The position numbers and the translations under genes are program-made. Positions 1 through 62,594 of a stretch of DNA of 64,000 nt are shown here, in pieces. Under the pieces are notes generated by a model that saw only the letters and a list, made by a program, of their open reading frames with translations, did no database searches and was not told the DNA's origin. Each line of letters opens with the position of its first letter. Position 1 is the stretch's first letter. Source of the DNA: Bacteroidota bacterium (GTDB taxonomy: Bacteria; Bacteroidota; Ignavibacteria; UBA10030); NCBI GenBank assembly GCA_049644265.1, contig JBARRO010000139.1, positions 5,462 to 69,461 of the forward strand. Reading direction: 5' to 3'.

Positions 1-1599
1 GACTTCTGACGGCTTGGTGTTCACCTTTCCAACGAGAACCTGGCCAGTCGTTCCATCGATCGAGATCCAGTCCCCTTCCTTTACCATCTTTCCGTTGGCT
101 CCCATGGTTCTCTTGGTGTAATCAATCTCGAGCTCGCCACATCCTGCCACGCAAACTTTTCCCATCTGGCGCGCAACGAGAGCCGCGTGGGAGGTCATGC
201 CGCCGCGGGCGGTAAGAATTCCTTCAGCTGCATCCATCCCTTTGATGTCCTCCGGAGAAGTCTCGATGCGGGTCAGGATGACCTTTTCTCCGCGCTTCGC
301 CCATTCCTCGGCGTCATGCGCGTTGAACACAACCCTGCCTGTTGCAGCGCCGGGGCCTGCATTGAGCCCCTTTGCCAGGAGTCGCCCTCCCTTGATCGCC
401 GACTCTTTTTCCTTGAGGTCGAAGATCGGCCGCAGCAGCTGGTTGAGTTGATCAGGCTCGATACGGAGAAGAGCCTCGCGGTCCGAGATGAGCTTTTCCT
501 CAACCATATCGACGGCAATCTTGATCGCGGCGAAGGCTGTCCGCTTTCCCGCGCGACATTGAAGCATGAACAGCTTCCCTTGCTGGATCGTGAACTCGAT
601 ATCCATCATGTCGCGGTAGTGCTTTTCCAGGGTCTGGCGGTTCTTCTCGAGTTGTTTGTAGATGGGGGGATTGTCCTTCGCCAATCTCGACATGGGAAGC
701 GGAGTACGAATCCCGGCCACGACGTCTTCACCCTGGGCATTCATGAGGTATTCACCGTAGAACACGTTCTCGCCGGTGGCGGCATCGCGCGTAAAGGCGA
801 CTCCGGTTCCGGAATCTTCTCCCATATTGCCAAACACCATTGTCTGGACGTTCACTGCCGTTCCCCACGACTCGGGGATGTCATAGAGTTTCCGATAGGC
901 AATTGCCCGGTCGTTCATCCATGAACCAAACACGGCTCCGATTGCTCCCCAGAGCTGGTCGTACGAATTTTCCGGGAAATCGCTCCCCGCTTTCTCCTTG
1001 ATGGCTTTTTTAAAGAGAACAACCAGGTTCTTCAGGTCTGCCGCCGTGAGATCGGTGTCGAGCTTCACGCCGCGCTCTTTTTTCATATGCTCGATAATCT
1101 CTTCGAACGGATCGATCGCATCTTTTCCGACGGGCTTGAGGCCGAGGACGACGTCCCCATACATTTGAACGAACCGTCGGTAGGAGTCGTATGCAAAGCG
1201 CTCATTTTTCGTCTTTGCGATGATCCCGGCGACCGTCTTGTCGTTCAAGCCCAGGTTGAGAATCGTATCCATCATCCCCGGCATTGAGGCGCGTGCACCG
1301 GACCGAACAGAAACGAGCAACGGGTTGGCGGGATCGCCGAATTTCATCCCCATCGCCTTTTCAACTTTCACGAGTGCAGCCGCGACTTCTTTTTCCAGGG
1401 ACTTCGGGTATTTCTGCTTGTTCGCATAGTACGCGGTGCACACTTCGGTGGTAATGGTAAATCCCGGAGGGACCGGCAAGCCGATGTTGGTCATCTCGGC
1501 GAGGTTTGCACCTTTTCCGCCGAGGAGGTTCTTCATTTCTGCTTTCCCTTCGGCCTTGCCGCTGCCGAAGAAGTAGACATATTTCGCTGATTTCGCCAT
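1..1599 (-). CDS. ppdK: Pyruvate, phosphate dikinase, N-terminal about 530 codons (gene continues past window start)
   Basis: Minus-strand frame open to the window edge. Reverse complement of 1501-1599 translates [33 protein letters not shown], the canonical PPDK N-terminus. ATG at 1599. Absent from the ORF track because the stop lies outside the window. The plus-strand ORFs at 187-924 and 197-451 are shadows of this gene. Confidence 0.9.
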
Positions 1600-1622
1600 G
1601 GTACACTGCTTCCTTTCCGAGT

Positions 1623-2324
1623 TCAGGTTACTTTGCTTTTGACCGATTGATGAACTTCCCGCAAGAACATCGTTGCGAGGTTTGTTGAAACACTCTCTTT
1701 CGGCGCCCGTTCGGGGTGCCACTGGACGAGCATAAGGAACGGCATCCCTTCTTTTATCGCCCACTCCGCTGCCTCAATCACACCGTCCCCTGATTGAGCA
1801 GACGGAACCAGGCCCCTTCCGAGCTTCTCCACCGCCTGGTGATGGTAGGAATTCACTTGTTCGACAATTCCCGTTGTCATGATGCGAAGCAATGAATGGG
1901 GAGCAACGGTGACAGCGTGACGCGTTTCGTTTCCCTTTGGGCTTGAATGATTCTCGAAACCTTCCGACGCCAGATCGACGTGGAGGGTGCCGCCCAGATA
2001 CACGTTCATGACCTGCATCCCGCGGCAGATTCCCAGGATTGGCAGGTCTGCGTTCAAAGCTTTCTCGATGAGAGCAAATTCAAATTCATCGCGCCGCTCA
2101 TCCACCCCTTGAGTCTTCGGCAGCAATTCCTGTCTGCCATAGTTCACGGGGTGCACGTCTCCGCCTCCTGTCAGGACAAGTCCGTCAAGAGCAGAAACGG
2201 ATTCAGCGGATGGGGCATCCTGGGACAACTTGTCGATCTTGATCCCAGGATCCACAGAGTGGATCCACTCGACATATTGCCGGAATTTGTCTTCGTTACG
2301 CGTATCGGTGATCCCAATCTTCAT
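1623..2324 (-). CDS. Class-I glutamine amidotransferase-like protein, peptidase C26 / gamma-glutamyl hydrolase family
   Basis: ORF 1623-2333; ATG giving MKIGITDT at 2324. Motifs GICRGMQ (catalytic Cys) and HPE near the C-terminus are typical of the C26 family. Directly downstream of lpxK. Confidence 0.75.
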
Positions 2325-3380: not shown

Positions 3381-4502
3381 TCAGGCCAGCTGAACAATCC
3401 GTTCCGCCACGCGCCTTGACGCTCCCACCGTGCCGAGCATTCCTTTCACTTTCGACAACTCTGCTTTCATTTCACTCAACCGCGCTTCATCGGCAAGCAG
3501 CCGGAGCGCTCCGCGAACCAGGGTCCGCGGGGATGCCCGGTGCTGGATGAATTCGGGCACAATGCGTTTGCCGGCAACAATGTTCACGAGGCCGATATTC
3601 TTGATGCTGACGAGCACTCTGCCGATCAGGTACGTCAGCCACGAAGTCTTGTACAAGACGAACATCGGCGTTCCAAAGCACGCCGTTTCCAGCGTCGCGG
3701 TGCCCGACGTAACAAGCGCAAAATCGGCGTTGGCCATGAGCTCGTAGGTCGCCCCTTTGACAAGCCGGATTCCGTCGAGGTTGAAAAGGGTTTTGAAATA
3801 TTGTTCCTCGAGGGTTGGCGCCACTCCGACCGCGACCTCCATATTCCGTCGGATTGCGATGGCCTTCGCTGCGGAAAGCATAGCCGGAAAGATCGTTTCG
3901 ATTTCCTGACGCCTGCTTCCGGGCAAGAGCCCGATGAGTTTCTTTTTCTCGTCGAGGTCGTACCGTTTGAAAAAATTCTTCCGGTCAAGCTGAGACTGAA
4001 GGACTTCCAGAAGCGGATGGCCGACGAATTCGACGTCGATTCCCTCCTTACGATACAGGTCCACCTCAAACGGAAAAATGACGAGCATCTTATCCACCAG
4101 TCCCTTCATCTTTTTGATCCTCGACTTGTGCCACGCCCACACCTGGGGGCTGATGTAGTACACCACGGGCACTCCGTATTTCTTGGCGACAGCCGCAAAC
4201 CTCAGATTGAACCCCGGATAGTCTATCAGAAGAATGACGTCGGGCTTTTTGAACCTGACGATCTGGCCGAGCGTATGTTCCATCGCTTTGATGAACGGCA
4301 AATGCTTGAGCACCTCGACGAACCCCATGAATCCCAGTTCCTTGATGTGATAGATGAGGTCCATTCCTTCGCGCTTCATCTTGTCTCCCCCCACACCGTA
4401 GACGTCGATTTCGGGGGAGATACGTTTGAGCTCACGGACAACACCCGAGCCGTGCAGGTCACCGGACGCCTCGCCCGCGATGATCATGACTCTGCGGACC
4501 AC
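3381..4502 (-). CDS. lpxB: Lipid-A-disaccharide synthase
   Basis: 373 aa. N-terminal IIAGEASGDLHG and GT-B fold features of LpxB. 3-nt gap to lpxK. Confidence 0.9.
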   Translation of the reverse strand: MVRRVMIIAGEASGDLHGSGVVRELKRISPEIDVYGVGGDKMKREGMDLIYHIKELGFMGFVEVLKHLPFIKAMEHTLGQIVRFKKPDVILLIDYPGFNLRFAAVAKKYGVPVVYYISPQVWAWHKSRIKKMKGLVDKMLVIFPFEVDLYRKEGIDVEFVGHPLLEVLQSQLDRKNFFKRYDLDEKKKLIGLLPGSRRQEIETIFPAMLSAAKAIAIRRNMEVAVGVAPTLEEQYFKTLFNLDGIRLVKGATYELMANADFALVTSGTATLETACFGTPMFVLYKTSWLTYLIGRVLVSIKNIGLVNIVAGKRIVPEFIQHRASPRTLVRGALRLLADEARLSEMKAELSKVKGMLGTVGASRRVAERIVQLA

Positions 4503-12969: not shown

Positions 12970-12984
12970 GATGTCTTTGAGAGT

Positions 12985-13030
12985 CTATGAGTGGATGAGT
13001 AGATGAGTAGTGGAGTAGTGAAGAAAGAGA
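12985..13030. repeat. GAGTAGATGAG-type word repeat, left flank of the four-helix-bundle gene
   Basis: Sequence gagtggatgagtagatgagtagtggagtagtgaag. The same words occur reverse-complemented at 13395-13445. Confidence 0.6.
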
Positions 13031-13032
13031 TG

Positions 13033-13386
13033 CTATCTTAGCAACGATTTTTGTAGACCGTACAGCATCGCAATGATCTCATTGAACTGCTTGAGAATAT
13101 CTTGATAGGTTGCCTCCTGCATGAAATCATTTTCCAGAGCAATATCGAGGCAACCTACGCACTCGAAAGCGGAACGAATTGAGTAATCAAGAAAACGCGC
13201 GAATTCTTTTTTTGTCGTGTTTCCCGCACCTTCAGCAATATTCAGAACAATCGAATCCGTAGCCCTTTTGAATTGCGAGGTTAATACGAATAGTTCGTCT
13301 TTCGGGAATCTTCTTACTGTCTGCCTTACAACCTTTGTCATCGAAAGCGCTTTTCGATAGACATTTAGATCCTTGAATTTGTTCAT
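13033..13386 (-). CDS. Four-helix-bundle protein (23S rRNA intervening-sequence protein family, TIGR02436-like)
   Basis: 117 aa. Similar to the small Bacteroidetes/Leptospira four-helix-bundle proteins. Flanked by inverted word repeats. Confidence 0.7.
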   Translation of the reverse strand: MNKFKDLNVYRKALSMTKVVRQTVRRFPKDELFVLTSQFKRATDSIVLNIAEGAGNTTKKEFARFLDYSIRSAFECVGCLDIALENDFMQEATYQDILKQFNEIIAMLYGLQKSLLR

Positions 13387-13394
13387 GGAATCCC

Positions 13395-13445
13395 CCTTTT
13401 TTGGTTGATTTTACTCAACTACTCCATTACTTCACTACTTCTTCT
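13395..13445. repeat. Reverse-complement copy of the GAGTAGTGAAG word repeat, right flank of the four-helix-bundle gene
   Basis: Sequence ctcaactactccattacttcactacttcttctcc is the reverse complement of the words at 12985-13030. Confidence 0.6.
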
Positions 13446-16704: not shown

Positions 16705-16705
16705 G

Positions 16706-16800
16706 GAGATTTAAGAGTTTAAAGTTTCTAGTTTAAAGTTTAGGGTTTGAGAGCTGAGGGCTGAGGTTTGGCGAGCACTACTTTAGTTTTGAGTTTGCAG
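16706..16800. repeat. GAGTTTA-period word array
   Basis: Sequence gagatttaagagtttaaagtttctagtttaaagtttagggtttgagagctgagggctgaggtttgg with a 7-nt period. Confidence 0.6.
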
Positions 16801-16837
16801 AAAAATTCCAGCGTGCAGGCAGTAGAGAAACCATTAC

Positions 16838-16925
16838 CCATTACTTATTGCTCATAGCTTATTCTCCGTTCTTCATTGTTCATTGCTCATTGTTCATTGC
16901 ATCATTGTCCATCGCATCGTTGTCC
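16838..16925. repeat. CATTGYYCATTG word array overlapping the 3' end of a CDS
   Basis: Sequence cattgttcattgctcattgttcattgcatcattgtccatcgcatcgttgtccattgcc. The part inside the gene encodes the DNDAMDNDAMNNEQ tail. Confidence 0.6.
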
Positions 16926-17403
16926 ATTGCCTTCTCCCACTCTTCAAACTCTTTCCTGGCAGCGACGTATTCGGGGATCGGAACAAACACCTTGGCCGGT
17001 TTGCTCAGGTTGCTGCGGGACTGAGGGGAGTCTCCGCCTCCGTCCCAGACAAATCCGATTGAATTGAAATTCTGCGGCAACACCGTGAATCCCTGCGATC
17101 CGAGGAATGAGCGGACGAGTTCTGCATCGTTGATTTCCGTCGATTGGAAGAGCTTTGCCCAATCCTGTTGGACCTCGACTTTGCAATGGCTCAGACAAAA
17201 CTGACGGCCGCGAACAACCTTCGCACATTCCTTGCAGACAACCTTCCGGCAGATAATGCAAACCCCTGACGAAATATTCTCCGGATGGGTCTCACAGAAG
17301 ACATCCGTTCCGCCCTCAAAGAGTATTCCGCAGTGGGGACAGAAATCGGAGTCTGCGGTGACTTCTTCAGAGCAGTTGGGACATGCGGTCAGTTGAGACA
17401 TAT
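16880..17403 (-). CDS. Zinc-ribbon / B-box-like plus DUF2007-like protein
   Basis: ATG at 17403 gives MSQLTACPNCSEEV. There are two Cys clusters (CPNC...CPHC and a B-box-like CETH...C..C..C...H..C). The C-terminus is a repeat-encoded low-complexity tail. The annotated 193-aa ORF has a further upstream in-frame extension that I discount. Confidence 0.55.
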
Positions 17404-19189: not shown

Positions 19190-22069
19190 TTAGGGTGTTG
19201 AGTCCCGACCCTTATCGCTGACGTTCCCTTCATCTTTCAATGCATGTAGAATCGCATCGTGAATTCTGGGGCGAGCGCGTGCTATTCTGCCGAAGTTGCG
19301 ACTCGGATAAACACGATTCGTGAGGAGGACAATAATCACGTTCTTTTCCGGGTCCGCGACGACAGAAGTTCCTGTGAATCCCGTATGAAGAAACGTCTTC
19401 ATCGACGTGAGCGTTCCGGAGAACGATCGCCCGGAAGTCTTCGTATCCCATCCAATTGCCCTGCTGTCCTTTTCCGACTGACGCTCGATGAACCTGGAAA
19501 TAGTCTCTTTGCTGATGTAGCGCTTTCCTCCGTAGGTGCCGCCGTTGAGAAGCATTTGCATGAAGATCGCAAGGTCCGAGGTTGTCGAAAACAGACCCGC
19601 ATGGCCCGACACTCCTCCGAGCGTCGCCGCATTCTCGTCATGCACGCGGCCACGCACAGCCACTCCCGTGTGGCGCCAATACGTATCAACCTCCGTCGGG
19701 GCGATTCGGTCGATGAGGCGCTGCGGAGGATTGTACGTCGTGCTCCTCATCCCGAGCGGCTTGAAGAACAAAGAGTCCACGTACTTGTCCAGTCCGACGC
19801 CGGTGATTCTTTCTATCACCTTTCCTGTCGTAATTAATCCGAGGTCACTATACAAGGTCGAATCACCTGTTTTGTAGATCAGTCCTGTGGCAAAGACCGA
19901 GTCGACAACGCACTGGGAATCCTGACAGAAATCGTAGAATCGCCTCCATGCCGGCAGTCCGCTGTTGTGAACCATCAGGTTGTAGAGCGTGATGTTCTCT
20001 TTTCCGTTTTGTCCAAACCGCGGGAGATACTGCACAACCCGGTCTTCCAGTCTCAACTTCCCTTCGTCTACAAGCCTCATTACTGCGCTTGTTGTTGCGA
20101 TGACTTTTGTGACTGACGCGAGGTCGTAGATGGTGTTGACGTCAACACGCTTTGAATAGAGCCCGTACTCGTAGCCGCCGAATGCTTTGTTGTAGACTAT
20201 GACCCCATTCCTCGCGGCGAGGAGGACACCGCCCGGGAAGGCCGAATCTTGTATCGATGATTCTACGACATCGTCAACCTTTTGAAGTTCGGCTCTGTCG
20301 AATCCAACTTCCTCCGGCGCTCCAGTTCTCATCGTTGTTTTTGGATACTCAATGCCGTCGCCGAAATTGTAGACTCCCGGTACGGTGATCGGCAGTTTCC
20401 CCACCGCAGGAGATTCTGCAAACAGCACTTCCGCGGCGGCCTGCTCCATGACGTCCGCATCGGAGTACGTGCACACATACGCGTCGACCTGCGGAAACTC
20501 CATGACTACGTATGGATTTCCGAACGAGACAGCAACGACAGGTTTTTTCAAAGCGAGGAGATTCTGCATCAACGCCGCCAGCTTGGGATCGACGAACCCG
20601 GTCATTTCACCGGAGCGGGTGTAGAGATGAAGCTGACAAAGCAGGATATCGGCGGTCTTTGCTTTCACGAGGAGCGAATCGTACTCCATCCGGTTGCTTC
20701 GGGGATCAATCGTCGCACGGCCAACCCTCCCACGCCGGGCCTGAAGAAGCCGATGGAACCCGTCGCCGGCAGAGGGATCCTCCGTGTCGGAAATAATGAC
20801 GTCGAGGATTTTCGTCGTGTCCGTCTTCGGAAGAGGCAGAATGCCGCTCTTGTTTCCCAGGACCGTCACCGCTTTGCGCGCGATTTCCGTCGCGAGCAAC
20901 TGATGCGGCCGCGTGCCAACCTGCTCGTAGATTTTGGCAACATCAACGTATCGATTAGCATCCAAACCCATTCGCTGTTTGATCTTCAGCAGTTTCCGGA
21001 CCGAACCGTTGATCCGCTCTTCAGTTATTTCTCCGTTCTTCACTGCAGCGACGATGGCATCGACGGCGAGGTCGGGGTCTACAGGCATGAGAACCAGGTC
21101 GACTCCGGCCTTGATAGCGAGGACCGCCGCCTCGCCCGGCGCATATTTTTTCGCCACACCGGCCATTTGCATGGCATCAGTGACCACAAGTCCGTCGAAC
21201 TTCAATTCGTCTTTGAGGAGCTTCGTCGTGATGTTCGGCGAGACCGTTGCTGGAACGCCTGGAACTGAATCGTAGACGGGAACTGCGAGATGACCGATCA
21301 TCACGGAGAGAGCTCCCGCGTTGAATGACTGGACGTATGGGGGAAGGTCACGTTTCTCCAACACGTCTTTGCCAAAGTTCAGAATGGAAAGACCAAGATG
21401 AGTGTCAACGTCCGTGTCCCCGTGTCCGGGGAAATGCTTCACGGTGGCGATCATGCCGCCGTCCTGGGTCCCTTTCACGAATGCGGCTCCCATTTCGGAA
21501 ACCAGTTTCACCTCATCGCCAAACGCCCGAGTGTTGATGACGGGATTCTTCGGGTTGACGTTCACGTCGATATCGGGTGCGTAGTTCTGATGAACTCCGA
21601 GCGCTCGTCCCTCGATTGCCGTGACCTTGCCGACTTCGTAGGCATAGCCAGGATTTCTCGTCGCTCCGATCGCCATCGCCCGCGGAAACGTCGTCGAGCC
21701 ATGGACGCGCATCCCGACACCGTATTCAAAATCTCCTGCAATGAGCAGCGGAACATCGGCGTGTTCCTGGAGCTTGTTGATTTGCACGGCGTATTCGTAC
21801 ACATCTCCGATAGAGAAGATGAATCCTCCGAGTTTCCTCTCCTGAGTGAGGCGTTCAAGCTCTTGCCACCGGTCCGAGTCCTTCGGATAGTATTTCCCGA
21901 GCGTCCAGACAAAAACCAGCTGGGAGACTTTTTGTTCAAGCGGAAGACGCTGAAGGGTTGATTCAACCCAGTCGGGACCCACTGAGACGGTGGTTTGTGG
22001 GGGTATGGATGTGGAACAGCCGAGTCCAAGGAGGATAACGAAAACGAAAATTGTGAGTGATTTGGTCAT
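19190..22069 (-). CDS. nagZ: Bifunctional beta-N-acetylhexosaminidase (GH3, NagZ-like) fused to a beta-lactamase-fold serine hydrolase; lipoprotein
   Basis: 959 aa. Lipoprotein signal with LGC lipobox. N-terminal GH3 motifs KHFPGHG and Asp nucleophile region GLVVTDAMQMAGV. C-terminal domain carries an SxxK motif (SVTK) and beta-lactamase-fold features. Confidence 0.85.
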   Translation of the reverse strand: MTKSLTIFVFVILLGLGCSTSIPPQTTVSVGPDWVESTLQRLPLEQKVSQLVFVWTLGKYYPKDSDRWQELERLTQERKLGGFIFSIGDVYEYAVQINKLQEHADVPLLIAGDFEYGVGMRVHGSTTFPRAMAIGATRNPGYAYEVGKVTAIEGRALGVHQNYAPDIDVNVNPKNPVINTRAFGDEVKLVSEMGAAFVKGTQDGGMIATVKHFPGHGDTDVDTHLGLSILNFGKDVLEKRDLPPYVQSFNAGALSVMIGHLAVPVYDSVPGVPATVSPNITTKLLKDELKFDGLVVTDAMQMAGVAKKYAPGEAAVLAIKAGVDLVLMPVDPDLAVDAIVAAVKNGEITEERINGSVRKLLKIKQRMGLDANRYVDVAKIYEQVGTRPHQLLATEIARKAVTVLGNKSGILPLPKTDTTKILDVIISDTEDPSAGDGFHRLLQARRGRVGRATIDPRSNRMEYDSLLVKAKTADILLCQLHLYTRSGEMTGFVDPKLAALMQNLLALKKPVVAVSFGNPYVVMEFPQVDAYVCTYSDADVMEQAAAEVLFAESPAVGKLPITVPGVYNFGDGIEYPKTTMRTGAPEEVGFDRAELQKVDDVVESSIQDSAFPGGVLLAARNGVIVYNKAFGGYEYGLYSKRVDVNTIYDLASVTKVIATTSAVMRLVDEGKLRLEDRVVQYLPRFGQNGKENITLYNLMVHNSGLPAWRRFYDFCQDSQCVVDSVFATGLIYKTGDSTLYSDLGLITTGKVIERITGVGLDKYVDSLFFKPLGMRSTTYNPPQRLIDRIAPTEVDTYWRHTGVAVRGRVHDENAATLGGVSGHAGLFSTTSDLAIFMQMLLNGGTYGGKRYISKETISRFIERQSEKDSRAIGWDTKTSGRSFSGTLTSMKTFLHTGFTGTSVVADPEKNVIIVLLTNRVYPSRNFGRIARARPRIHDAILHALKDEGNVSDKGRDSTP

Positions 22070-22177: not shown

Positions 22178-23458
22178 TCACGCTTTCTTTTTTCCGAATT
22201 CCGGGTCGATTTTCACGAGCGCTGCCACGAGGAAGCCGGGGATCGTGGAAGCCATGACCCAGAGGAAGAAATTCTTGTAGCCGATGGCATCCTGGATTGC
22301 TCCGCTGAACATTCCGGGGAGCATCATCCCGAGGGCCATGAATCCCGTGCAGATGGCATAGTGCGCGGTTTTATAGCGCCCTTCGGAAACCAGGATCATG
22401 AACATCATGTATGCAGTAAATCCGAATCCGTATCCGAATTGCTCCACGGCTACGGCCGCGTTAATAAACAACAGGTTCGTCGGCTGCACATGAGAAAGGT
22501 AGACGAACATTGCATCGGGAAGATGTATGGACAGGACCATGATCCAGAGCCAGAACTTGAGCCCCTTCTTCGCGATCACAAAGCCGCCGAGCAATCCGCC
22601 GAGCGTCAGAGCAATGATGCCGACCGTGCCGTAGACAATTCCGACTTCGCTTGTGGTGAGGCCGAGCCCGCCTTTGTCCCGTGCGTCGAGGAGAAACGGC
22701 GATACGAGTTTGACCAGCTGAGCTTCGGCAAACCGATACAGGAGAAGAAAGGCAAGAATAGTAATGATCTCCTTGCGCTTGAAGAACACAACGAACACTT
22801 CGAGGAATTTTGTGACAACTCCTGAGGATCCTTCACCAGGGTTTGAAACGTCGGATACGGGATACGGGAGGAGGAATTTGTGATAGATGAAGAACAGCAG
22901 GAAGAGGCCGGCGAGCAATCCGAAGGCAATCGACCAGGCAACCGTAATGCTTCCGCTGGTCGTTTCGATCGATCCCGCGAGAACCACGAGGGCGCCCTGA
23001 GCCGTGATCATCGCTATTCGATAGAAAGTGCTGCGTACTCCGACGAACGCCGCCTGCTGATGCTCCGGAAGAGCAAGCATGTAGAAGCCATCTGCAGCGA
23101 TATCGTGCGTCGCAGAGCTGAACGCCATGAGCCAGAATACCGCAAGCGTGTATTGGAAGAACGACGGCAGTGGAATCGTCAGCGCGACCCCAGCGAGTCC
23201 TGCTCCGATGAGTAGCTGCATCGTAATGATCCAGAATCGCTTGGTCTTGAGAATGTCGACCACAGGGCTCCACAGCGGCTTGATGACCCACGGGAGGTAG
23301 AGCCAGCTTGTATACAGGGCGATGTCGGTGTTCGAGATCCCCATACGTTTGTACATGATGACGGAAACCGTCATCACAACGACGTACGGAAGGCCCTCGG
23401 CAAAGTAAAGAGTCGGGACCCAAGCCCAGGGATTGCGGGATGCGGGAGTAGAGGCCAT
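22178..23458 (-). CDS. ampG: Muropeptide MFS transporter AmpG family
   Basis: 426 aa, 12 TM. N-terminus WVPTLYFAEGLPYVVV and overall AmpG-like sequence. Confidence 0.85.
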   Translation of the reverse strand: MASTPASRNPWAWVPTLYFAEGLPYVVVMTVSVIMYKRMGISNTDIALYTSWLYLPWVIKPLWSPVVDILKTKRFWIITMQLLIGAGLAGVALTIPLPSFFQYTLAVFWLMAFSSATHDIAADGFYMLALPEHQQAAFVGVRSTFYRIAMITAQGALVVLAGSIETTSGSITVAWSIAFGLLAGLFLLFFIYHKFLLPYPVSDVSNPGEGSSGVVTKFLEVFVVFFKRKEIITILAFLLLYRFAEAQLVKLVSPFLLDARDKGGLGLTTSEVGIVYGTVGIIALTLGGLLGGFVIAKKGLKFWLWIMVLSIHLPDAMFVYLSHVQPTNLLFINAAVAVEQFGYGFGFTAYMMFMILVSEGRYKTAHYAICTGFMALGMMLPGMFSGAIQDAIGYKNFFLWVMASTIPGFLVAALVKIDPEFGKKKA

Positions 23459-23773
23459 GAGAGTGATAAGGTTTAATAAGGAGTATTCAGTTCGTTGGAT
23501 ATTGGGTGTTGGTTATTGAGTGTTGGACATTGAAAAAGATTCAATTTCCAATAACGAATGTTTGGGAGTTGGGCATTGAAAAAAGACTCAACATCCAATA
23601 GCATCGTCCGATGTCCAATTACCAAGGAGTAAGACCTTGAGAGTTGATCATTGGGAGTTGGAAATTGAAAGCTGAAAGATTCAAATTCCAATACCCAACA
23701 ATCAACATCCAACGTTCAAGGGAACACACCTTGGACATTGGAAATTGGCTATTGGAGATTGGACATTGAATCT
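23459..23773. repeat. Cluster of TTGGA(C/A)ATTGA...TCAAT(G/T)TCCAA hairpin repeats
   Basis: At least five imperfect inverted-repeat units (for example ttggaaattgaa-agctgaaaga-ttcaaattccaa) fill the whole 315-bp gap between ampG and the spoIID-like gene. Confidence 0.7.
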
Positions 23774-25102
23774 TCAATACAGTTTCTGAAGTTCCGCCCC
23801 ACGAAAATAGTGTTTCACAATTTCTTCCGCGCCGAATCCTTTGGCAGCCATCACGGCAGCGCCGATCTGGCAAAGTCCGACTCCGTGTCCCCAACCACCG
23901 CCGCGGAGCGTGAATTGTGTTGGAGTTCCCTGCGAGTCCTTTTCCGTCTCCACAATGAACGCGGAGCTGTACAGATGACTCTTCGAAAGCCACCGACGGA
24001 TTTCCAGTTCTTTTCCTACAACAATCGTCTTTTTGGTCCCCTCAATCCTGAGCCGGAAGATTCTGCCCGACGGACCACGCTGCAACGGGACCAGGTTCAG
24101 GATGGTTCCAAAGTCAATGCCCGACTTCGACTTGATAAGTTCTTCGAGCGCTTCGCGATTGTAGACCACCGTCCAACGGAAGAAATCCGTGGTTTCCTGG
24201 TCAAACGACGGCAGGACCTGTTTCAGAATCTTTCCGTCCGCGGTGTTGCAATACGCGTCGGGGGAAGAATGAAGCCACTCAGCTGCGCGGGATTCAGTGA
24301 CAACGGGAGCGTAGTGATTTGCTGAATCGGAAACGGAGCTGAGATACGGGATGGACAACTCTTCCCAACAGCTTTCAAACAGCTCCGACAGCCCTCCGCA
24401 AGACTTGGAGAATCGCGCATCGCAAACCTGATTATCGTGAATCAGAAACGTGCCCCGGGTTGCTTCCACGGCCTCGGCGGCGGCCTTCGAAATGATTTTC
24501 GTGAGGCCTTGGTAGCGCTGGCAATGGTCGTCCGCACAAACGTCGAACAGGGCATGATCCTCGCGGTCATACCAGCGAACAATTTCCTCTGCAGTCTGGC
24601 GCGATCTCTGCGAAGGGACGCCGACGTTCTTCTTTTCCCGTTCAAGCATCGCGACGAGCCAGCTTCGGGAGGTGATCGCGTGGGCCTTGAGCAAGTCAAT
24701 CGGAGCTTCCGCGCTCATTTCCGATGAGATGACACTCTTGAGGTATTCTTCAACACCGACCTCGTTGATGGCTGTAATGGTGCCATCCTCCCTGGCGAGC
24801 AGGCGAAGACTGCCGGGAAATGTCTGCGTCTCCCTCCGCTCCCAGTGAAATCCGACTCCAATCGTCACGTTCGCAAGCTTGAACGGCAGACCCTCGAGCG
24901 GTTTGCAGAGGAATTCCTTCTGCCGGATAATTTCTTTCCCGGTTTTGTTCTTAAGAACCACTGCACCATGTTCGACGCTCGCGGTAAATTCCCCCTGGAC
25001 TCCAAACACATTCCCTACAACAAATTTCCCGTCAAACGACCCTTCGACGCGAGGCTCGTGCTCGAACATTCCGACGGTGATAAGGGGCTCTTTGGAAACC
25101 AT
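23774..25102 (-). CDS. SpoIID/LytB domain protein
   Basis: 442 aa. C-terminal SpoIID signature GGGWGHGVGLCQIGA. Confidence 0.8.
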   Translation of the reverse strand: MVSKEPLITVGMFEHEPRVEGSFDGKFVVGNVFGVQGEFTASVEHGAVVLKNKTGKEIIRQKEFLCKPLEGLPFKLANVTIGVGFHWERRETQTFPGSLRLLAREDGTITAINEVGVEEYLKSVISSEMSAEAPIDLLKAHAITSRSWLVAMLEREKKNVGVPSQRSRQTAEEIVRWYDREDHALFDVCADDHCQRYQGLTKIISKAAAEAVEATRGTFLIHDNQVCDARFSKSCGGLSELFESCWEELSIPYLSSVSDSANHYAPVVTESRAAEWLHSSPDAYCNTADGKILKQVLPSFDQETTDFFRWTVVYNREALEELIKSKSGIDFGTILNLVPLQRGPSGRIFRLRIEGTKKTIVVGKELEIRRWLSKSHLYSSAFIVETEKDSQGTPTQFTLRGGGWGHGVGLCQIGAAVMAAKGFGAEEIVKHYFRGAELQKLY

Positions 25103-25103
25103 T

Positions 25104-25172
25104 GGGAGTTTCTAGTTTCTAGTTTCTGGTTTCTGGTTTAGAGTTTAGAGTTTAGAGTTTCTAGTTTCTGCG
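25104..25172. repeat. GAGTTTC/TAGTTTC heptamer array
   Basis: Sequence gagtttctagtttctagtttctggtttctggtttagagtttagagtttagagtttctagtttctg. Confidence 0.7.
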
Positions 25173-25203
25173 CCGAGCCGAGGATCGCAGAGTTGCTGAA
25201 TGC

Positions 25204-26175: not shown

Positions 26176-26291
26176 GAAGAAATACCACGAAGGTCACTAA
26201 GGACACAAAGGAAAGAAATAATATTGAGAGAGAATCGTTGGACCGATTTCGAATAAAACCCTTAGTGTTCTTCGTGTCCTTCGTGGTTCAC
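26172..26291. repeat. CACGAAGG / CCTTCGTG word repeats arranged as an inverted pair
   Basis: ccacgaaggtcactaaggacacaaagg...aatattgag at the left, and cccttagtgttcttcgtgtccttcgtgg at the right. Confidence 0.65.
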
Positions 26292-29334: not shown

Positions 29335-29430
29335 AAAGGGGGCAGGGTAGGTTAGTTGGTTGACTGGTTAATTGGTTATTGGTTGATTGATGGGTTTTTT
29401 GCTGGCTACTCACCAACTAACTCCTCACCA
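29335..29430. repeat. GGTTAATTGG word array that is self-complementary
   Basis: ggttagttggttgactggttaattggttattggttgattg is followed by ctcaccaactaactcctcaccacttacc, its imperfect reverse complement. Lies in the divergent 270-bp gap between the kinase gene and tlpA. Confidence 0.65.
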
Positions 29431-29561
29431 CTTACCATACCCGTGGTATCTCTTTTCATTTTTTCCTATTATCGAATTGCTTCCAGAATCGGGAAACCTT
29501 CAGTCCGTTTTGTTGTTGTACACCCTGAATTCTCTTGTTGAACCTCTTTGAGGAATTGTTG

Positions 29562-32035: not shown

Positions 32036-33616
32036 ATGTTTAAGAATCTGAAACTCTCCACAAGAGTCTTTCTCATCCTGACACCATTTCTCATCGTGGC
32101 GTTTGGTTCTTCGGTGTATGTGAATTATCGTTTCCAGGAGCAGCAGACGCTGGAGCAGGCAGGGAACGCCGCCAATGCCGAAGCGGTCATCATCAAGCGT
32201 TCGCTCGTTCACATGATGGTGAAGAACCTGATCGTCGACGACAAGTATCTCGCCCAGATCAACGAACCGGGCGGAGATATCGAAAACCTTCAGGTTCTGT
32301 TTCATGCGGACAGTCTGCATCTGTTGGAGGATTACGCCACCCCGCAACGCATGGCCCGGCTCCGCGAGCGACAGGCATCGCTCTTCAACTTGCGCCCGGC
32401 TCAGTATGAGCAGGCATTTTCAACGGGGCGGCCGGTCTGGATCATGGCGTGCGACATCACGAAGCATCCCATCGAACTCCCCAAGCACGACGACTATCCC
32501 ATTGAATCGTTCTCGTCGGGAATTCCGCTGAAGTTCTGGACATGCGGGAAGCTGAAGGTCATCCTCCCGTTCCGTGCGGAGGGACGATGCCAGACCTGCC
32601 ACGATGTTCCGGAGGGATACGTCCTGGGCGCAGCATCGATGGACGTCCCCTTTGTCTCAACGTTCAGTGCCATCCGCGCCAACGCTGTACGGTCAGCAGG
32701 AATTTTTCTGGTCGTCACCCTGGTGACCATCGGAGTGGGTGCGTTCTTCTTCAGGAGGCTGGTGGGAAAGCCGATTGGACGTCTGGTCAAAGCGACCGAG
32801 ATGATCGGCGGCGGCGACCTGAACGTCCGGGTCAGCGAAGGGTTTGACAATGACGAACTCGGAAAGCTCGCCGTGTCGTTCCAGCATATGCAGGAGCGGT
32901 TACGTCAGGCCCAGGCGGAGCTCGTCAAGAAAGAGCGCCTGTCCACCCTCGGCCAGATGGCAAGCGGCATCATCCACGATTTTCGCAACCCGATTTCCAG
33001 CGCCCTCGCTGCCATCCAGTTCCTCGAACGCCACAAGGATGTGAGCGACGATCGCCGGCATGAAATGCTCGAGCTCGTCCGCAGCTCCGTCGATCGCATG
33101 CTCCGGATGACGCAGGAACTTCTCGACTTTTCGCGGGGGGAAGTGCGGCTCGAGCTTCGTGAGGAACTCGTCGGGGACCTTCTCGCCGAAATCACAAAAG
33201 ACGTGAAGTCGAATCTTGAGAAACGGGGTATTACTTTTGCGGTCCGGCAGGAGTTTGAAGGAAAGATGTTCTTTGACAGGGATCGCCTGCTCAGGGCGCT
33301 TATTAATATCATCAATAACGCGGAAGACGCCATGCCGAAAGGGGGCTCGATTGACCTGGAGGTCGTTTCCGAAAATGGGACGCTCGTGTTCAGGATTCGA
33401 GACACAGCGGGAGGAATCCCCGAGAGAATCCGCGACAAGGTGTTTGAGCCGTTCTTTACCTCCGGAAAGGCGAAAGGTACGGGATTGGGGTTGGCAATTA
33501 CGAAAAGGATTGTTGAACAACACGGCGGCACGATCCACTTCGAGTGTGAGGACGGCAAAGGGACCACATTCTTTATTAAGATCCCGATTCGGCAGGAGCT
33601 TGCAAAAACGGCATAA
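32036..33616 (+). CDS. Sensor histidine kinase with a periplasmic domain carrying a c-type haem motif (CxxCH), HAMP, HisKA and HATPase_c
   Basis: 526 aa. TM1, then an approximately 190-aa periplasmic domain containing CQTCH at nt 32587-32604, TM2, HAMP, H-box GIIHDFRNP, and the G1/G2 boxes. No response regulator gene in the window. Confidence 0.8.
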   Translation: MFKNLKLSTRVFLILTPFLIVAFGSSVYVNYRFQEQQTLEQAGNAANAEAVIIKRSLVHMMVKNLIVDDKYLAQINEPGGDIENLQVLFHADSLHLLEDYATPQRMARLRERQASLFNLRPAQYEQAFSTGRPVWIMACDITKHPIELPKHDDYPIESFSSGIPLKFWTCGKLKVILPFRAEGRCQTCHDVPEGYVLGAASMDVPFVSTFSAIRANAVRSAGIFLVVTLVTIGVGAFFFRRLVGKPIGRLVKATEMIGGGDLNVRVSEGFDNDELGKLAVSFQHMQERLRQAQAELVKKERLSTLGQMASGIIHDFRNPISSALAAIQFLERHKDVSDDRRHEMLELVRSSVDRMLRMTQELLDFSRGEVRLELREELVGDLLAEITKDVKSNLEKRGITFAVRQEFEGKMFFDRDRLLRALINIINNAEDAMPKGGSIDLEVVSENGTLVFRIRDTAGGIPERIRDKVFEPFFTSGKAKGTGLGLAITKRIVEQHGGTIHFECEDGKGTTFFIKIPIRQELAKTA

Positions 33617-33639
33617 GATCGGACTGACCACGAAGTTCA

Positions 33640-33712
33640 CAAAGGGCACGAAGGGGAATACGTCATAATCCCTTGGAAATTGGATGTTCGACATTGATTA
33701 TTGAGTGTTGAT
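33640..33712. repeat. One CACGAAG word element plus one TTGGAAATTGGA...GACATTGA element
   Basis: ccacgaagttcacaaagggcacgaaggggaatac and cttggaaattggatgttcgacattgattattgagtgttg. These are members of the families seen at 26172 and 23459. Confidence 0.5.
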
Positions 33713-33857
33713 CTCTTTAACGGAGAAAAGGGAACGGAACCATGTAGGAACGATGGAACGAGAAACGGCGTGTAGGGGTTTAATGATGATGTCCAACAAA
33801 AGAAATTACTTGTGGCAATTCACTAATCACAATATCTATACATCAGGAGGATACCGT

Positions 33858-34322
33858 ATGAAGAAACTCATTCTTGTGTTTCTCGCGTGCGTCGTGGCAT
33901 CGTCGATGCTCTTCGCACAAGAGAAAATGGAGAAGAAAGAGATGAAGAAGGAAATGTCCGGTTCGCATGTCATGACCGGATGGCTCGTCGACCAGATGTG
34001 CGGAAAGAAAATGGGGAACGGCGACGCCGAGAAATCCAATGCCAAAGCAGCAAAACACACCAAGGATTGTGCAGTGGAAGAATCCTGTGCGGAATCCGGC
34101 TATGGCCTGGTCAACAACGGCAAGTGGTTTAAGTTCGATGAGAAGGGCGACAAATTGGCCGCCGAGTGGCTGAGCAAGACCGACCTGAAGAAGAACCTGA
34201 TGGTGAACGTGAAGGGAGCGATGGACGGAGACAATATCAAGGTTGAATCCATCACCACCGCGAGCGAAAAGAAAATGGATATGAAGGACGGAAAGATGAT
34301 GGAGAAGAAGGCGAAGAGCTGA
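33858..34322 (+). CDS. Small secreted Lys/Met-rich protein with four Cys
   Basis: RBS aggagga. Signal peptide MKKLILVFLACVVASSMLFA. No family recognised. Confidence 0.6.
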   Translation: MKKLILVFLACVVASSMLFAQEKMEKKEMKKEMSGSHVMTGWLVDQMCGKKMGNGDAEKSNAKAAKHTKDCAVEESCAESGYGLVNNGKWFKFDEKGDKLAAEWLSKTDLKKNLMVNVKGAMDGDNIKVESITTASEKKMDMKDGKMMEKKAKS

Positions 34323-34361
34323 AGGGAGTTATCAGCAGTCAGCGTTCAGTTGTCAGGAGAG

Positions 34362-34396
34362 CCGCCGGTGTGAGAACATCGGCGGCTTTCTTTTTC
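34362..34396 (+). terminator. Rho-independent terminator
   Basis: Stem gccgccggtg-tgagaaca-tcggcggc followed by TTTCTTTTT. Confidence 0.75.
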
Positions 34397-34549
34397 CACG
34401 AAGTACTATGAGCTACCACGAAGGACACTAAGAACACGAAGAGAATATTGAGTATGAATCATGAATCCCGGCGGCTTTCTTTTTCCACGAAGCACTATGA
34501 ACTACCGCGAAGGACACGAAGAGAATATTGAGTGTGTGCCTTGAATCCC
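34381..34549. repeat. Approximately 85-bp tandem direct duplication
   Basis: Copy 1 is 34381-34468 and copy 2 is 34470-34549. They share cggcggctttctttttccacgaag.actatga.ctacc.cgaaggacac...gaagagaatattgagt and include the 3' arm of the terminator and CACGAAGG words. Confidence 0.8.
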
Positions 34550-36747: not shown

Positions 36748-36751
36748 GGGG

Positions 36752-36900
36752 AGGAAGGTAGATGTGAGATGTGTGATTTGAGTTTCGAGTTTGAAGTTTG
36801 GAGTTTGAAGTTCAAGGTTTAAAGGTGTTGCCAGTTTACCAGTCTCCAGTAACCAGTTCACGGTTCACTATTCACGATTCACTATTCACCACTCATTGCT
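36752..36900. repeat. Composite intergenic element (GAGATGT)n-(GAGTTTN)n-AAGTTCAAGGTTTAAAGGTG-core-(TTCACTA)n
   Basis: Shares an approximately 60-nt core with 56241-56300, and shares architecture with 41312-41511 and inverted 49015-49140. Confidence 0.75.
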
Positions 36901-41308: not shown

Positions 41309-41311
41309 GGG

Positions 41312-41511
41312 GATGGGAGAGGTGAGATGTAAGATGTGGGATGTAAGAAGTGAGATGTGAGTTTCGAGTTTTCGGTTCTGAGTTTAGAGTTCAAAGTTCA
41401 GGTTACACTCTACCTATCACTTTTCGCTTTTCATTTTTCACTGTTCACTGTTTGCTTTTCACCTTTCACTTTTCGCTTTTCACTGTTTACAGTTCACCAT
41501 CCGCGAGCATC
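41312..41511. repeat. Composite intergenic element (GAGATGT)n-(GAGTTT)n-AGTTCAAAGTTCAGGTT-(TTTTCAC)n
   Basis: Same architecture as 36752-36900. Occupies the spurious 5' extension of ORF 41357-42127. Confidence 0.75.
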
Positions 41512-42127
41512 CGTGAGTAGCCGCTTCCGACATATCGCTCTCCTTCTCAGCTTCCTCGCAATTTTCATCTGGTCCGTGATCTATCCCAAGGATCTTTTCA
41601 CCTGGTTTCTCGAAGTTTTCCCGGCAATCATCGGACTCTGGGTCCTTCTTGCCACGTATAAACGATTCCCGTTGTCGGATCTGGTGTACGGATTAATCTG
41701 GATTCACGCAATCATTCTTGTTATCGGCGGACACTACACGTATGCCGAGATGCCGTTGTTCAGCTGGATCAGAGACACGTTTCATCAGTCGCGAAATTAC
41801 TATGACAGAGTGGGGCACTTCGCGCAGGGGTTTATCCCGGCGATGATTGCGCGCGAGGTGCTCTTACGAACAACCTCTCTGAAACGCAGCAAAATGCTGA
41901 CGTTCATTATTGTCTCAATTTGTCTCGCAATCAGCGCCGTTTATGAACTGATCGAATGGGGAGTTGCGGAGGCGACCGGTTCAGCTGCCGACGCTTTTTT
42001 GGGAAGTCAGGGAGATGTGTGGGACACGCAGTGGGATATGTTTACGGCGTTGTGTGGGGCGATGATTTCCGTTGGGACACTCTCCCGGGCGCATGATCGC
42101 TCGATGTCGAGGTTGCCTTCCGAATGA
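41512..42127 (+). CDS. DUF2238 family inner-membrane protein
   Basis: Likely GTG start at 41512. Four to five TM helices. The upstream ORF extension reads as repeat-encoded nonsense. Confidence 0.6.
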
Positions 42128-42250
42128 TCCTGCTTCATATTTCTTTATCAGATCCTTCCTTGAATTGCCGTCCTCTTCTGTCGGCCTAAAAGGCCGACCT
42201 ACCGGGGATGGAAATGATCCTATTCGTGTTCTTCGTGTCCTTCGTGGTAC

Positions 42251-46964: not shown

Positions 46965-47050
46965 GGGAGTTGAGGAGTAGTGAGTAGACGAGTGGAGGAG
47001 TCTATGAGTCGATGAGTCTATGAGTCGATGAGTAGATGAGCCTCTAAGTA
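46965..47050. repeat. GAGTAGATGAGTC octamer array
   Basis: gaggagtagtgagtagacgagtggaggagtctatgagtcgatgagtctatgagtcgatgagtagatgag. Confidence 0.7.
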
Positions 47051-47054
47051 GGAA

Positions 47055-49014: not shown

Positions 49015-49140
49015 GTGAATCATGAGTGAAAAGTGAAAGGTGAATAGTTAGAGCGTATATCGCACTTTGAACATTGAACTTTAAACTCGAAACTTCAAAC
49101 TCTAAACTCCAAACTATCTCCCACCTTACCCTCGCCCCAA
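49015..49140. repeat. Composite element in inverted orientation: (GTGAA)n...(AAACTC)n
   Basis: gtgaaaagtgaaaggtgaatag...gaactttaaactcgaaacttcaaactctaaactccaaact is the reverse complement of the 36752/56187 architecture. Confidence 0.7.
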
Positions 49141-53611: not shown

Positions 53612-53614
53612 GAA

Positions 53615-53800
53615 TGTGTCAAATTAGGGAACACGAATGAACCGAATGCAACGAATCACACGAACGAGATATTAGTTTGTGAGTTTGTATGATTCGTGTC
53701 ATTCGCACGATTCGTGCAATTCGTGTTCCACGTATGGAACGAATGCCACAAATTAGACGAATAAGAAATTGGTTTGTGAGATTCGTGTTTCATCCTTCAA
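53615..53800. repeat. ACGAAT / ATTCGT word repeats forming a long imperfect hairpin
   Basis: Left arm ggaacacgaatgaaccgaatgcaacgaatcacacgaacg. Right arm gattcgtgtcattcgcacgattcgtgcaattcgtgttcc. Also tttgtgagtttgtatgattcgtg and ttggtttgtgagattcgtg. Confidence 0.7.
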
Positions 53801-53824
53801 TCCCTCTAATCCAACCAATCCTGG

Positions 53825-54826: not shown

Positions 54827-54834
54827 GGGAGGCT

Positions 54835-54925
54835 AAGTAGGTCGAGGTTGGTAAAGAGTAAAGTGTGAAGAGTAAAGAGTAAATGGTGAATAGTAAACAG
54901 GAAACCGTGAAGAGCGAACAGTAAC
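54835..54925. repeat. AGTAAAG / GTGAA word array
   Basis: ggtaaagagtaaagtgtgaagagtaaagagtaaatggtgaatagtaaacaggaaaccgtgaagagcgaacagtaactcgtgaac. Confidence 0.65.
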
Positions 54926-55128
54926 TCGTGAACTGACCGCTGAAGGCTGATCATGACCGCTAAAGTACTTTTTTTTCACTCGTTGAACAAGGGGAATAAC
55001 AATCAATTCACTCTCCTTTCCCCAATGATTCTTTCTCTCGCAATGAATGTTGTTCCAACGCAAGGACTTGTCTTGCCATTCTTGCCCTCCTTCTCTATAT
55101 TGATAGACCACATTTTTTCGAATTCCTC

Positions 55129-56186: not shown

Positions 56187-56345
56187 GAAGAAGAGGTTTC
56201 GAGTTTGGAGTTTAAAGTTTCAAGTTCAAGGTTCAAAGATCAAGGTTTAAGGTGGTTCCCAGTTGCCAGATAACCGTTCACTGTTCACTTATCGCTTTTC
56301 ACTTTTCGCTTCTCACTATTCACTCTTCACTATTTACTTCTTCCT
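56187..56345. repeat. Composite element (GAGTTT)n-AAGTTCAAGGTTCAAAG-core-(TTCACT)n
   Basis: Core ggtttaaggtggttcccagttgccagataaccgttcactgttcac is nearly identical to 36826-36880. Confidence 0.75.
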
Positions 56346-56356
56346 TATAGCTCTCC

Positions 56357-59482: not shown

Positions 59483-59538
59483 AGACTCCCGGAATACTTC
59501 TCAGCGAGATTCCGGGAGTCTTTCTTGTCTCTTTTTCC
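59483..59538 (+). terminator. Rho-independent terminator; stem shared with the valS terminator
   Basis: agactcccggaat-13 nt-attccgggagtct followed by ttcttgtctctttttcc. Confidence 0.75.
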
Positions 59539-59545
59539 CGGTTAT

Positions 59546-59745: not shown

Positions 59746-59772
59746 TCGTAGAATGAACTAACCACGAACTCG

Positions 59773-62583: not shown

Positions 62584-62594
62584 CGGAGGCGAAC

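Follow-up and report, generated by a model that had tools for sequence, protein, structure and literature searches.

What kind of DNA fills the 315-bp gap at 23459-23773, between an ampG-like and a spoIID-like gene, in a metagenome-assembled contig (JBARRO010000139.1, assembly GCA_049644265.1) of a member of the Bacteroidota? The DNA examined was a 64-kb stretch of this contig, referred to here as the window. A first-pass annotation had described the gap as filled entirely with chained hairpin units whose words recur elsewhere in the window. Its coordinates and gene context for the gap were correct: the flanking genes are co-oriented, both on the - strand. About 90% of the gap consists of TTGG-type words and their complements, but the first 34 nt form a plain leader, so that the filling is not complete. 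Recurrence of the words far exceeds chance. The pattern TTGGNNATTGR has 22 matches in the window against 1.13 expected, and none of 100 shuffles reached 22, so the random-expectation frequency that would have spoken against the annotation was not found within the window. Thirteen of the matches lie in the gap, 5 at 59657-59728, 1 at 33673 and 1 at 29372; 20 of the 22 are intergenic and only 2 fall within coding DNA. We consider it probable that the gap holds chained, dispersed hairpins made of 7-nt arrays, akin to the short tandemly repeated repetitive (STRR) sequences of cyanobacteria, that they are a lineage-specific filler, and that they have a possible role at the RNA level.

The organising principle of the hairpin arms, which the first-pass annotation overlooked, is a period of 7 nt. 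Gap bases compared at lag 7 match at a rate of 0.516, and lags 14 and 21 give 0.455 and 0.367; at the remaining lags from 1 to 20 the values are 0.19-0.34, and Tandem Repeats Finder (TRF) reported period-7/14 arrays. Setting out 47 units in 7-nt steps (some of the CCAA-type arms are off by one) gave the consensus T-T-G-(G/A)-N-N-N, with positions 1-4 conserved and the last three free. Every hairpin arm consists of degenerate tandem repeats of this unit, reading TTGRNNN in one arm and NNNYCAA in the other. There are four TTGG-type arms (F1-F4) and three CCAA-type arms (R1-R3), ranging from 19 to 42 nt in length (Table 1). Where an F arm meets an R arm the tip is conserved, consisting of TTGAA, a purine-rich loop of 5-10 nt and TTCAA. 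The tips are imperfect palindromes of 12 + 5-10 + 12 nt, and all copies are intergenic. One palindrome had been given as an example, TTGGAAATTGAA (23658-23669) and TTCAAATTCCAA (23680-23691) around a 10-nt loop, and it is exact. Because the loops AAAGA, AAAAGAC and AGCTGAAAGA are all read on the + strand, the copies are arranged head-to-tail and do not alternate. The fourth element runs with its tip, ATTGAA-TC-TTCAAT, into the spoIID-like stop codon and therefore lacks R4. In total, three complete copies and one truncated copy of a small dispersed hairpin element stand in tandem in the spacer. Hairpin units are indeed chained, as had been noticed, but what was counted as at least five palindromic units comes down to four F and three R arms.

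For the gap as a whole, predicted folding energies lie far below those of shuffled sequence on either strand (z about -8): the sense (-) strand gives -99.4 kcal/mol (z -7.95) and the + strand -114.9 kcal/mol (z -8.13). Taken unit by unit, stable stem-loops were obtained for two hairpins but not for all units. R3 paired foot-to-foot with F4 (23679-23770) gives the strongest single hairpin, at -42.0 kcal/mol and z -9.1, and element 3 (23637-23721) is also strong on the sense strand (-32.1 kcal/mol, z -6.0). Element 1 is modest (-9.8 kcal/mol, z -2.8 on the sense strand; -16.5 kcal/mol, z -2.5 on the + strand), and element 2 is at chance level on the sense strand (z -0.3) and reaches z -3.0 on the + strand. 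The distal part of F1 also pairs with R3, as an inverted repeat that is 85% complementary. The element 3 and R3:F4 hairpins are mutually exclusive, since both use arm R3, and because F arms can pair with any R arm the predicted ensemble is very degenerate. Two strong, exclusive hairpins sharing one arm (23680-23721), together with a first arm that begins at the spoIID-like stop codon, are features expected of an attenuator or switch for the ampG-like gene, in which a ribosome terminating at that codon would select R3:F4 or F3:R3. We regard such a cis-regulatory RNA as extremely improbable: neither hairpin is followed by a U-tract or terminator, the ampG leader is unsequestered in the predicted folds, there is no Rfam match, and relative L081 has one hairpin only and most relatives none.

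Of the two other sites to which the first-pass annotation had assigned the same family, one is a full member. The site at 59641-59745 contains a true copy at 59648-59737, which folds at -34.2 kcal/mol (z -5.2). Aligned with element 1 across the tip it is identical in 45 of 52 columns, with a score of 67; the null with 7-nt blocks shuffled gave 26.7 +/- 5.8 with a maximum of 57, and none of 1000 shuffles reached 67. Likeness above a unit-shuffled null argues that the family spreads by whole-element copying, beyond independent slippage. The site at 33667-33712 belongs to the same unit family but has one arm only and forms no hairpin (z -1.7). Two further arrays, at 29345-29447 and 62991-63135, align with each other (score 54) and form a common GGTTAAT sub-family; the first gives an imperfect hairpin, and the fold of its whole gap is not significant. 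Altogether the 64 kb contain the 4 copies of the chain, 1 dispersed copy elsewhere and 3 related arrays.

Table 1. Positions of the chain, its relatives and the genes discussed in the text
Feature	Position	Strand	Basis or remark
Leader, 34 nt, non-repetitive, G-poor on the sense strand	23459-23492	-	Sequence; directly upstream of the ampG-like start codon
Arm F1, six units TTGGATA TTGGGTG TTGGTTA TTGAGTG TTGGACA TTGAA	23493-23534		Register listing; TRF period 7/14
Loop 1 (AAAGA) and arm R1 (TTCAATTTCCAATAACGAATG), short partner of F1	23535-23560		R1 at 23540-23560
Element 2: F2 (TTGGGAGTTGGGCATTGAA), loop AAAAGAC, degenerate R2 with 15-nt non-unit insert	23562-23626		F2 at 23562-23580; R2 at 23588-23626
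Element 3: F3 (five units), loop AGCTGAAAGA, R3 (six units)	23637-23721		F3 at 23637-23669; R3 at 23680-23721; best match to L081 hairpin
Junction GAACACA and arm F4 (six units)	23722-23778		F4 at 23729-23770
Homologous dispersed copy of the element	59648-59737		Upstream of valS, downstream of a canonical terminator
TTGG-type array of about 5 units in a single arm	33667-33704	+	Abuts an ORF start; fold z -1.7, no hairpin
GGTTRRT / AYYAACC inverted arrays	29345-29447		Between divergent genes; TRF period 8/16
Second GGTTAAT sub-family copy	62991-63135		G-rich arm, then G-poor arm
GH3 and beta-lactamase-domain gene	19190-22069	-	Pfam scan; downstream, same strand
Major facilitator superfamily (MFS)/AmpG-like permease gene	22178-23458	-	Pfam scan; start codon at 23458
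SpoIID-domain gene (spoIID-like)	23774-25102	-	Pfam scan; stop codon 23774-23776
Histidine kinase gene	32036-33616		
valS	59773-62496		
PF05635 gene, window	13033-13386	-	117-aa ORF
PF05635 gene, L251-L256	near 4001-4369		gatB-PF05635-tpiA arrangement
PF05635 gene, L254, second copy	1770-2126		
PF05635 gene, L032	7448-7843		
PF05635 gene, L058	922-1290		

The TTGG chain is one flavour of a genome-wide population of short-period arrays (7, 8 and 9 nt) that fills most spacers. Over all intergenic bases of the window, lags 7, 14 and 21 have match rates of 0.373, 0.343 and 0.329, against 0.25-0.29 at other lags; coding DNA gives 0.246 and has no period-7 signal. All 19 strict period-7 segments are intergenic. 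Locally significant arrays of period 7, 8 or 9 were found in 22 of the 31 gaps (period 7 in 15), and none of the 31 was significant at periods 5, 6, 10 or 11. Examples are 16705-16940, 25103-25203, 36748-36900, 41309-41520, 46965-47054, 49019-49125, 54827-55128, 56187-56356 and 63199-63253, and arrays often lie within 0-10 nt of start or stop codons. The units include GAGTTTN, TTCACTN, GATGAGT(AG), CATTGNT, TTGRNNN, AGAAACT, GATGAGTAG and the 9-mer CACGAAGGA; at least six unrelated families with periods of 7, 8 or 9 are present, that of TTGG among them. Most array-bearing gaps fold no better than shuffles (for example 16705-16940, z +1.9/+3.5; 36748-36900, z about +1; and 56187-56356), so that hairpins arise specifically where a family is present in both orientations side by side.

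Conservation of unit positions 1-4 with three free positions is what a protein recognition word would produce, and each of the two main loci is located upstream of a gene start. A regulator or nucleoid protein that binds TTGRNNN in DNA, in the way that heptad repeats are recognised in some promoters, and controls transcription of the ampG-like gene and valS is nevertheless improbable: the six or more unrelated unit families elsewhere would require as many proteins, the flanking genes are unrelated in function (peptidoglycan recycling and valS), the same junction in relatives has other units or no spacer, and there is no promoter-like signal. A sigma-70 promoter scan of the gap gave nothing above shuffles, and the Bacteroidetes-type -7 motif TAnnTTTG, with 18 matches in the window against 15.3 expected, has none in the gap.

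Spacers in the window also show a polarity of composition. Sense-strand G amounts to 15.1% and C to 29.3% over the 50 nt that precede start codons, and C is the commoner of the two in 27 of 34 cases; the 50 nt after stop codons have 24.7% G and 22.3% C (Mann-Whitney p = 0.002). The G-poor arm comes last in the gap chain and in the copy before valS. A composite of the form [GAGTTTN]n-spacer-[TTCACTN]n occurs at 36748-36900, 41309-41520 and 56187-56356 and, reverse-complemented, at 49019-49125; its polarity, with the G-rich arm first and the G-poor arm second, survives reverse complementing. The words of this composite are found in opposite orientation in relatives whose SpoIID-like proteins are 67% identical (L046, 4253-4381 and 7353-7401; L001, 1534-1643; L numbers denote loci outside the window). 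Leaders often end C-rich before ATG (gaatcccc-ATG, aactccca-ATG, tagctctcc-ATG) and lack a Shine-Dalgarno sequence, with the exception of genes of the PF05635 family, which have GGGGGA/GGAGG-like sites.

To which known kind of repeat does the chain belong? REPs (repetitive extragenic palindromes), which number in the hundreds per genome, carry at the foot of the palindrome a GTAG/CTAC motif that is the recognition site of REP-associated tyrosine transposases (RAYTs), and BIMEs (bacterial interspersed mosaic elements) consist of alternating units; within operons such elements can act as mRNA stabilisers. The first-pass annotation had likened the hairpins to REP/BIME clusters. As in those of enterobacteria and pseudomonads, the units are extragenic imperfect palindromes that are short, clustered and dispersed, and the sequence common to copies extends past the unit word. 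A true REP/BIME, spread by a RAYT (an IS200/IS605-like Y1 transposase) encoded elsewhere in the genome, binding gyrase or IHF and stabilising mRNA, is nonetheless very improbable. There is no GTAG/CTAC head on either strand in 23452-24015, and a Pfam scan detected neither a RAYT (PF01797) nor any other transposase among the approximately 50 ORFs of the window. The copies are chained directly, head-to-tail and not alternating, the arms are of variable length with an internal 7-nt repeat, unlike those of REPs, and many other unit families, mostly non-palindromic, behave alike in the same genome. The resemblance therefore does not amount to membership, and the unit sequence is, as had been remarked, unrelated to known REP consensus sequences. 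REP-like action is possible; REP identity is not supported.

Internal 7-nt periodicity is the hallmark of heptanucleotide STRR and simple sequence repeat (SSR) arrays, and not of REPs. One classical STRR unit, reportedly from Mazel et al. 1990, is TTGGTCA, which fits TTGGNNA. The closest known kind is the heptanucleotide STRR hairpins of cyanobacteria, for example those between hupS and hupL, where 7-bp repeats form hairpins whose role is unknown and for which transcript stability or translational coupling has been proposed (PMC2670836). In both cases intergenic 7-bp tandem arrays in inverted orientation form a hairpin between genes that are, or here would be, co-transcribed: in the gap the inverted arrays fold, and the two - strand genes on either side are not separated by any terminator-like site. 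Unlike the cyanobacterial examples, the chain belongs to a Bacteroidota metagenome-assembled genome whose nearest relatives are labelled Ignavibacteriales or Bacteroidota, its units are degenerate, with only TTGR fixed, where the cyanobacterial copies are near-perfect, its elements are tandemly duplicated as well as dispersed, and families of period 7, 8 and 9 coexist. We file the chain under the STRR/heptamer-array kind, as a new degenerate unit in a new lineage.

The SSR literature names heptamers as the most over-represented class of long SSRs in bacteria, for which a polymerase-slippage explanation has been proposed (Mrazek et al. 2007 via PMC4679880; PMC4692102). Heptamer SSRs occur in Bacteroidetes, with mixed heptamer 'assemblages' in some, and TAACTGA repeats are found in Beggiatoaceae, cyanobacteria and Bacteroidetes (PMC4679880); in Xanthomonas, which has GGGAATC repeats, inverted heptamer arrays have been seen (PMC4692102). 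The window shares with these cases intergenic over-representation of 7-nt repeats, arrays that abut start and stop codons and, as in Xanthomonas, inverted pairs. It differs in that the published cases have one dominant word per genome in direct repeats, whereas here there are many words, a polarity of composition and one family in the form of chained hairpins. We found no literature linking heptamer repeats to Ignavibacteria-type genomes.

Other known kinds were considered as well. At the gathering threshold Rfam gave 0 matches over the whole window, and an E-value scan of the gap returned only sub-threshold eukaryotic miRNA-precursor models (19-30 bits against gathering scores of 90-100); no tRNA or tmRNA was found. 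An intrinsic terminator was rejected: there are 0 terminator-like sites in 23300-23950, and the stems are A/U-rich, 30-45 bp long and have no U-tract. Canonical terminators consisting of a hairpin and a T-run are present elsewhere in the window. Small ORFs in the gap, such as an unsupported 79-aa TTG ORF, were dismissed as repeat-generated frames, and a CRISPR-like arrangement was rejected, there being no constant repeats with unique spacers between them.

The history of the junction was addressed with a comparison set of 81 related loci. In the nearest species representatives the SpoIID-like protein is 56-69% identical, and the labels are many, the commonest including Ignavibacteriales/Ignavibacteriae and Bacteroidota. 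A significant intergenic lag-7 excess was present in about 10 of the 81 loci, the rest being without one, and spoIID-ampG synteny was kept in about 47. Among the latter the junction measures 0-46 nt in 13 relatives, and 75-946 nt in those with repeat arrays, 9-mer hairpins or a small ORF. L081, whose SpoIID-like protein is 86% identical (a relative, not strain-level), has a gap of 141 nt compared with 315 nt in the window, and carries a single TTGG/CCAA hairpin (-38.8 kcal/mol, z -4.6). This hairpin is closest to element 3 of the window, aligning as CCAACTCCCAATGATCAA against CCAACTCCCAATAATCAA, and its last arm is followed by some 36 nt of leader like that in the window. Upstream of the spoIID-like gene, the gap contains nine AGAAACT units in the window and is quite different in L081, and the spoIID-ampG gap of L046 (67% identity) contains GTGAACN x4 and TAAACTT x4.

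A strict four-unit TTGG array pattern had no match in the 81 related loci, and a metagenome scan with the hairpin-tip pattern returned 49 loci, mostly unrelated hairpins or coding DNA, with heptamer hairpins of the TTGGAGA/TCTCCAA type only in L094, L102, L113 and L126. A scan of viral contigs with the array pattern gave single scattered matches, at chance level for a 16-base pattern. Since the junction is short or occupied by other repeats or a small gene in many relatives, the chain is a lineage-specific filler of an ancestrally short operon junction, and not a conserved RNA; since it is short and repeat-free in many of them, any effect of the chain must be dispensable. The likely course of events would begin with a short spoIID-ampG junction, as the 0-46 nt of many relatives suggest. 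A TTGG-type hairpin would then have settled in the junction in this lineage, where one copy is present in the 86%-identity relative, and would have been multiplied locally in the window genome to 3.5 copies, with a copy or relative placed upstream of valS. The comparison of relatives shows an apparent expansion from one to 3.5 copies, with whole-element copying. At the level of the unit, we infer growth by slipped-strand or unequal duplication from the 7-nt register.

Several other repeats in the window deserve mention. A family with a period of about 9 (ACCACGAAGGACACGAAG / CTTCGTGTCCTTCGTGGT, with CGCAAAG variants) forms strong hairpins (z -4 to -6) at 26176-26287, 33625-33660, 34400-34530, 42220-42250, 53612-53824 and 59549-59575, and also occurs in the spoIID-ampG gap of relatives L010, L047, L048 and L049. 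Its copy at 26176-26287, a 9-mer hairpin of about 110 nt, is absent from L081; as a clean empty-site comparison this was set aside as ambiguous, L081 keeping arm-like sequence in an annotated gene start. Terminator-like hairpins at 59490-59540 and 62497-62594 have the same arms (GACTCCCGGAAT ... GATTCCGGGAGTC, then T-runs) and appear to be another small dispersed family. Downstream of 33705-34322, a tandem duplication of about 95 nt (34360-34400, 34455-34495) comprises a terminator-like hairpin (CGGCGGCTTTCTTTTTCCACGAAG...) and a 9-mer array. After an OsmC-like gene, 63678-63800 contains two direct copies of about 45 nt (GTTCACAGAGGTCTCAGAGAAGAACA[A/G]AGCACACA[G/A]AGGAA), about 75 nt apart. 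By eye, 1-1608 (-) appears to be the N-terminal part of a pyruvate phosphate dikinase that runs off the window, in which case ORF 187-924 (+) of the list would probably be spurious.

At a second type of locus in this lineage, inverted arrays surround a small gene. The ORF at 13033-13386 encodes a PF05635 '23S rRNA intervening-sequence protein' (a four-helix bundle, S23p/Avd-like) and has inverted arrays on either side (13387-13434 and 12970-13032); six further genomes keep the gatB-PF05635-tpiA arrangement. At each of the 10 PF05635 loci examined, short-period arrays in inverted orientation form flanks whose complementarity is significant (0-4 of 300-500 shuffles score as high), with units that differ between genomes yet stay complementary, and 29 control genes on the same loci have no significant flank complementarity (z -0.7 to 3.0). 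In L031/L032 the PF05635 gene lies inside the spoIID-ampG gap itself, between AAATGGA/TCCATTT arrays, and in L042 (3482-3634) only a 3' ORF remnant and an array hairpin are left. Many PF05635 homologues (P0122-P0240) are known only from contigs of about 0.5-3 kb, which fits assembly breaks at flanking arrays.

This arrangement recalls the IVS (intervening sequence) in the 23S rRNA of Coxiella, in which a terminal inverted-repeat stem, an RNase III substrate, is cut by that enzyme, the S23p ORF lies in the loop, and tandem heptameric repeats vary in copy number (PMC4990558). Long inverted-repeat stems, heptameric repeats near the stem and the existence of ORF-containing and ORF-less forms are common to both, and the PF05635 genes of this lineage likewise lie inside inverted arrays; the differences are that the sequences here are mRNA spacers and not rRNA helices, and that the chain's loops contain no ORF. 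Could the chain be an ORF-less, empty or decayed form of stems that enclose a PF05635 gene, cut by RNase III as in 23S IVSs? The matching Coxiella architecture (PMC4990558), the complementary arrays at 10 of 10 PF05635 loci but not around the 29 controls, the gene in the very same gap in L031/L032 and the L042 remnant with its hairpin speak for it, but we judge it unlikely: the loops of the chain are 5-10 nt with no ORF remnant, the TTGG unit is unlike every array around PF05635 genes, the gatB-PF05635-tpiA arrangement is old, syntenic and not visibly mobile, and flank complementarity could follow from the presence of one array family on both sides. The PF05635 observations lend support, short of proof, to the view that solo hairpins like the TTGG chain are ORF-less members of an IVS-like class. 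A broader conjecture, doubtful though worth stating, is that the spacers are modular, with a G-rich arm after the stop codon and a G-poor arm before the start codon; where the arms are complementary they would form stems, either empty or enclosing a PF05635 gene, and the chain would be an ORF-less, multiplied 'mRNA intervening-sequence' processed by RNase III.

Returning to the reading that we prefer, chained STRR-like hairpins that fill an operon junction, what might the chain do? From their domains, the GH3/beta-lactamase, ampG-like and spoIID-like genes together are read as a putative peptidoglycan-recycling cluster. The chain would be transcribed inside the spoIID-ampG message, because both genes are on the - strand with no terminator- or promoter-like site above chance in the interval; such co-transcription would carry a consequence at the RNA level. 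In such a transcript the arms would form alternative imperfect duplexes of 30-45 bp, with predicted energies of -32 to -42 kcal/mol and no U-tail, resembling duplexes that double-strand-specific (RNase III-type) enzymes cut or that hold up 3' exonucleases. The likeliest effect, and our best guess from these predicted folds, would be segmental processing or stabilisation of the operon transcript, which would uncouple expression of the spoIID-like and ampG-like genes. An analogy to extragenic palindromes that shape mRNA stability seems reasonable. The element may also persist mainly as tolerated or selfish DNA.

Several observations pull the other way. The role at the RNA level is something we infer purely from the predictions above. 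Strong selection on the sense RNA is made less likely by the absence of the element from most relatives and by the degenerate ensemble, in which the minimum free energy (MFE) structure, at a frequency of 0.001, leaves no single fold defined. Sense-specific G.U enrichment, as a sign of RNA-level selection, was rejected: predicted gap hairpins contain 14 G.U pairs on the + strand, antisense here, against 6 on the - strand, and the + strand excess recurs at 29340-29460 (9 against 1) and 59630-59760 (8 against 1) regardless of gene orientation, which hints at strand-specific mutation bias or a DNA-level hairpin rather than selection on mRNA. For growth by slippage, within-array matches are 65-84%, so that the arrays are degenerate with no near-identical copies and only the TTGR core fixed. 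At another array locus, eight independent contigs with an identical PF05635 protein have identical flanking arrays with no length polymorphism, and thus give no demonstration of active slippage, and the same unit words are found at several loci and in relatives, which pure random slippage leaves unexplained. Finally, the copy number comes from a metagenome-assembled contig and may be affected by repeat mis-assembly; the hairpin in the independent assembly L081 indicates that the element itself is real.

We know of no function established for heptanucleotide arrays in any lineage. Outside cyanobacteria the arrays described here are unusually dense, occupying 22 of 31 spacers, and they have a clear polarity relative to start codons, with one family taking the form of chained, dispersed hairpins inside a putative peptidoglycan-recycling operon. 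In practice, short-period arrays probably also explain why contigs break in metagenome assemblies of this group. Stems that are processed would provide a general way to uncouple cistrons in bacteria that use the Shine-Dalgarno sequence little; if the stems are not processed, the locus would be a clean case of tolerated repeat DNA colonising operon junctions. Should the doubtful modular-spacer conjecture prove true, STRR-type heptamers, IVS elements and the enigmatic PF05635 family would be tied into one mechanism.

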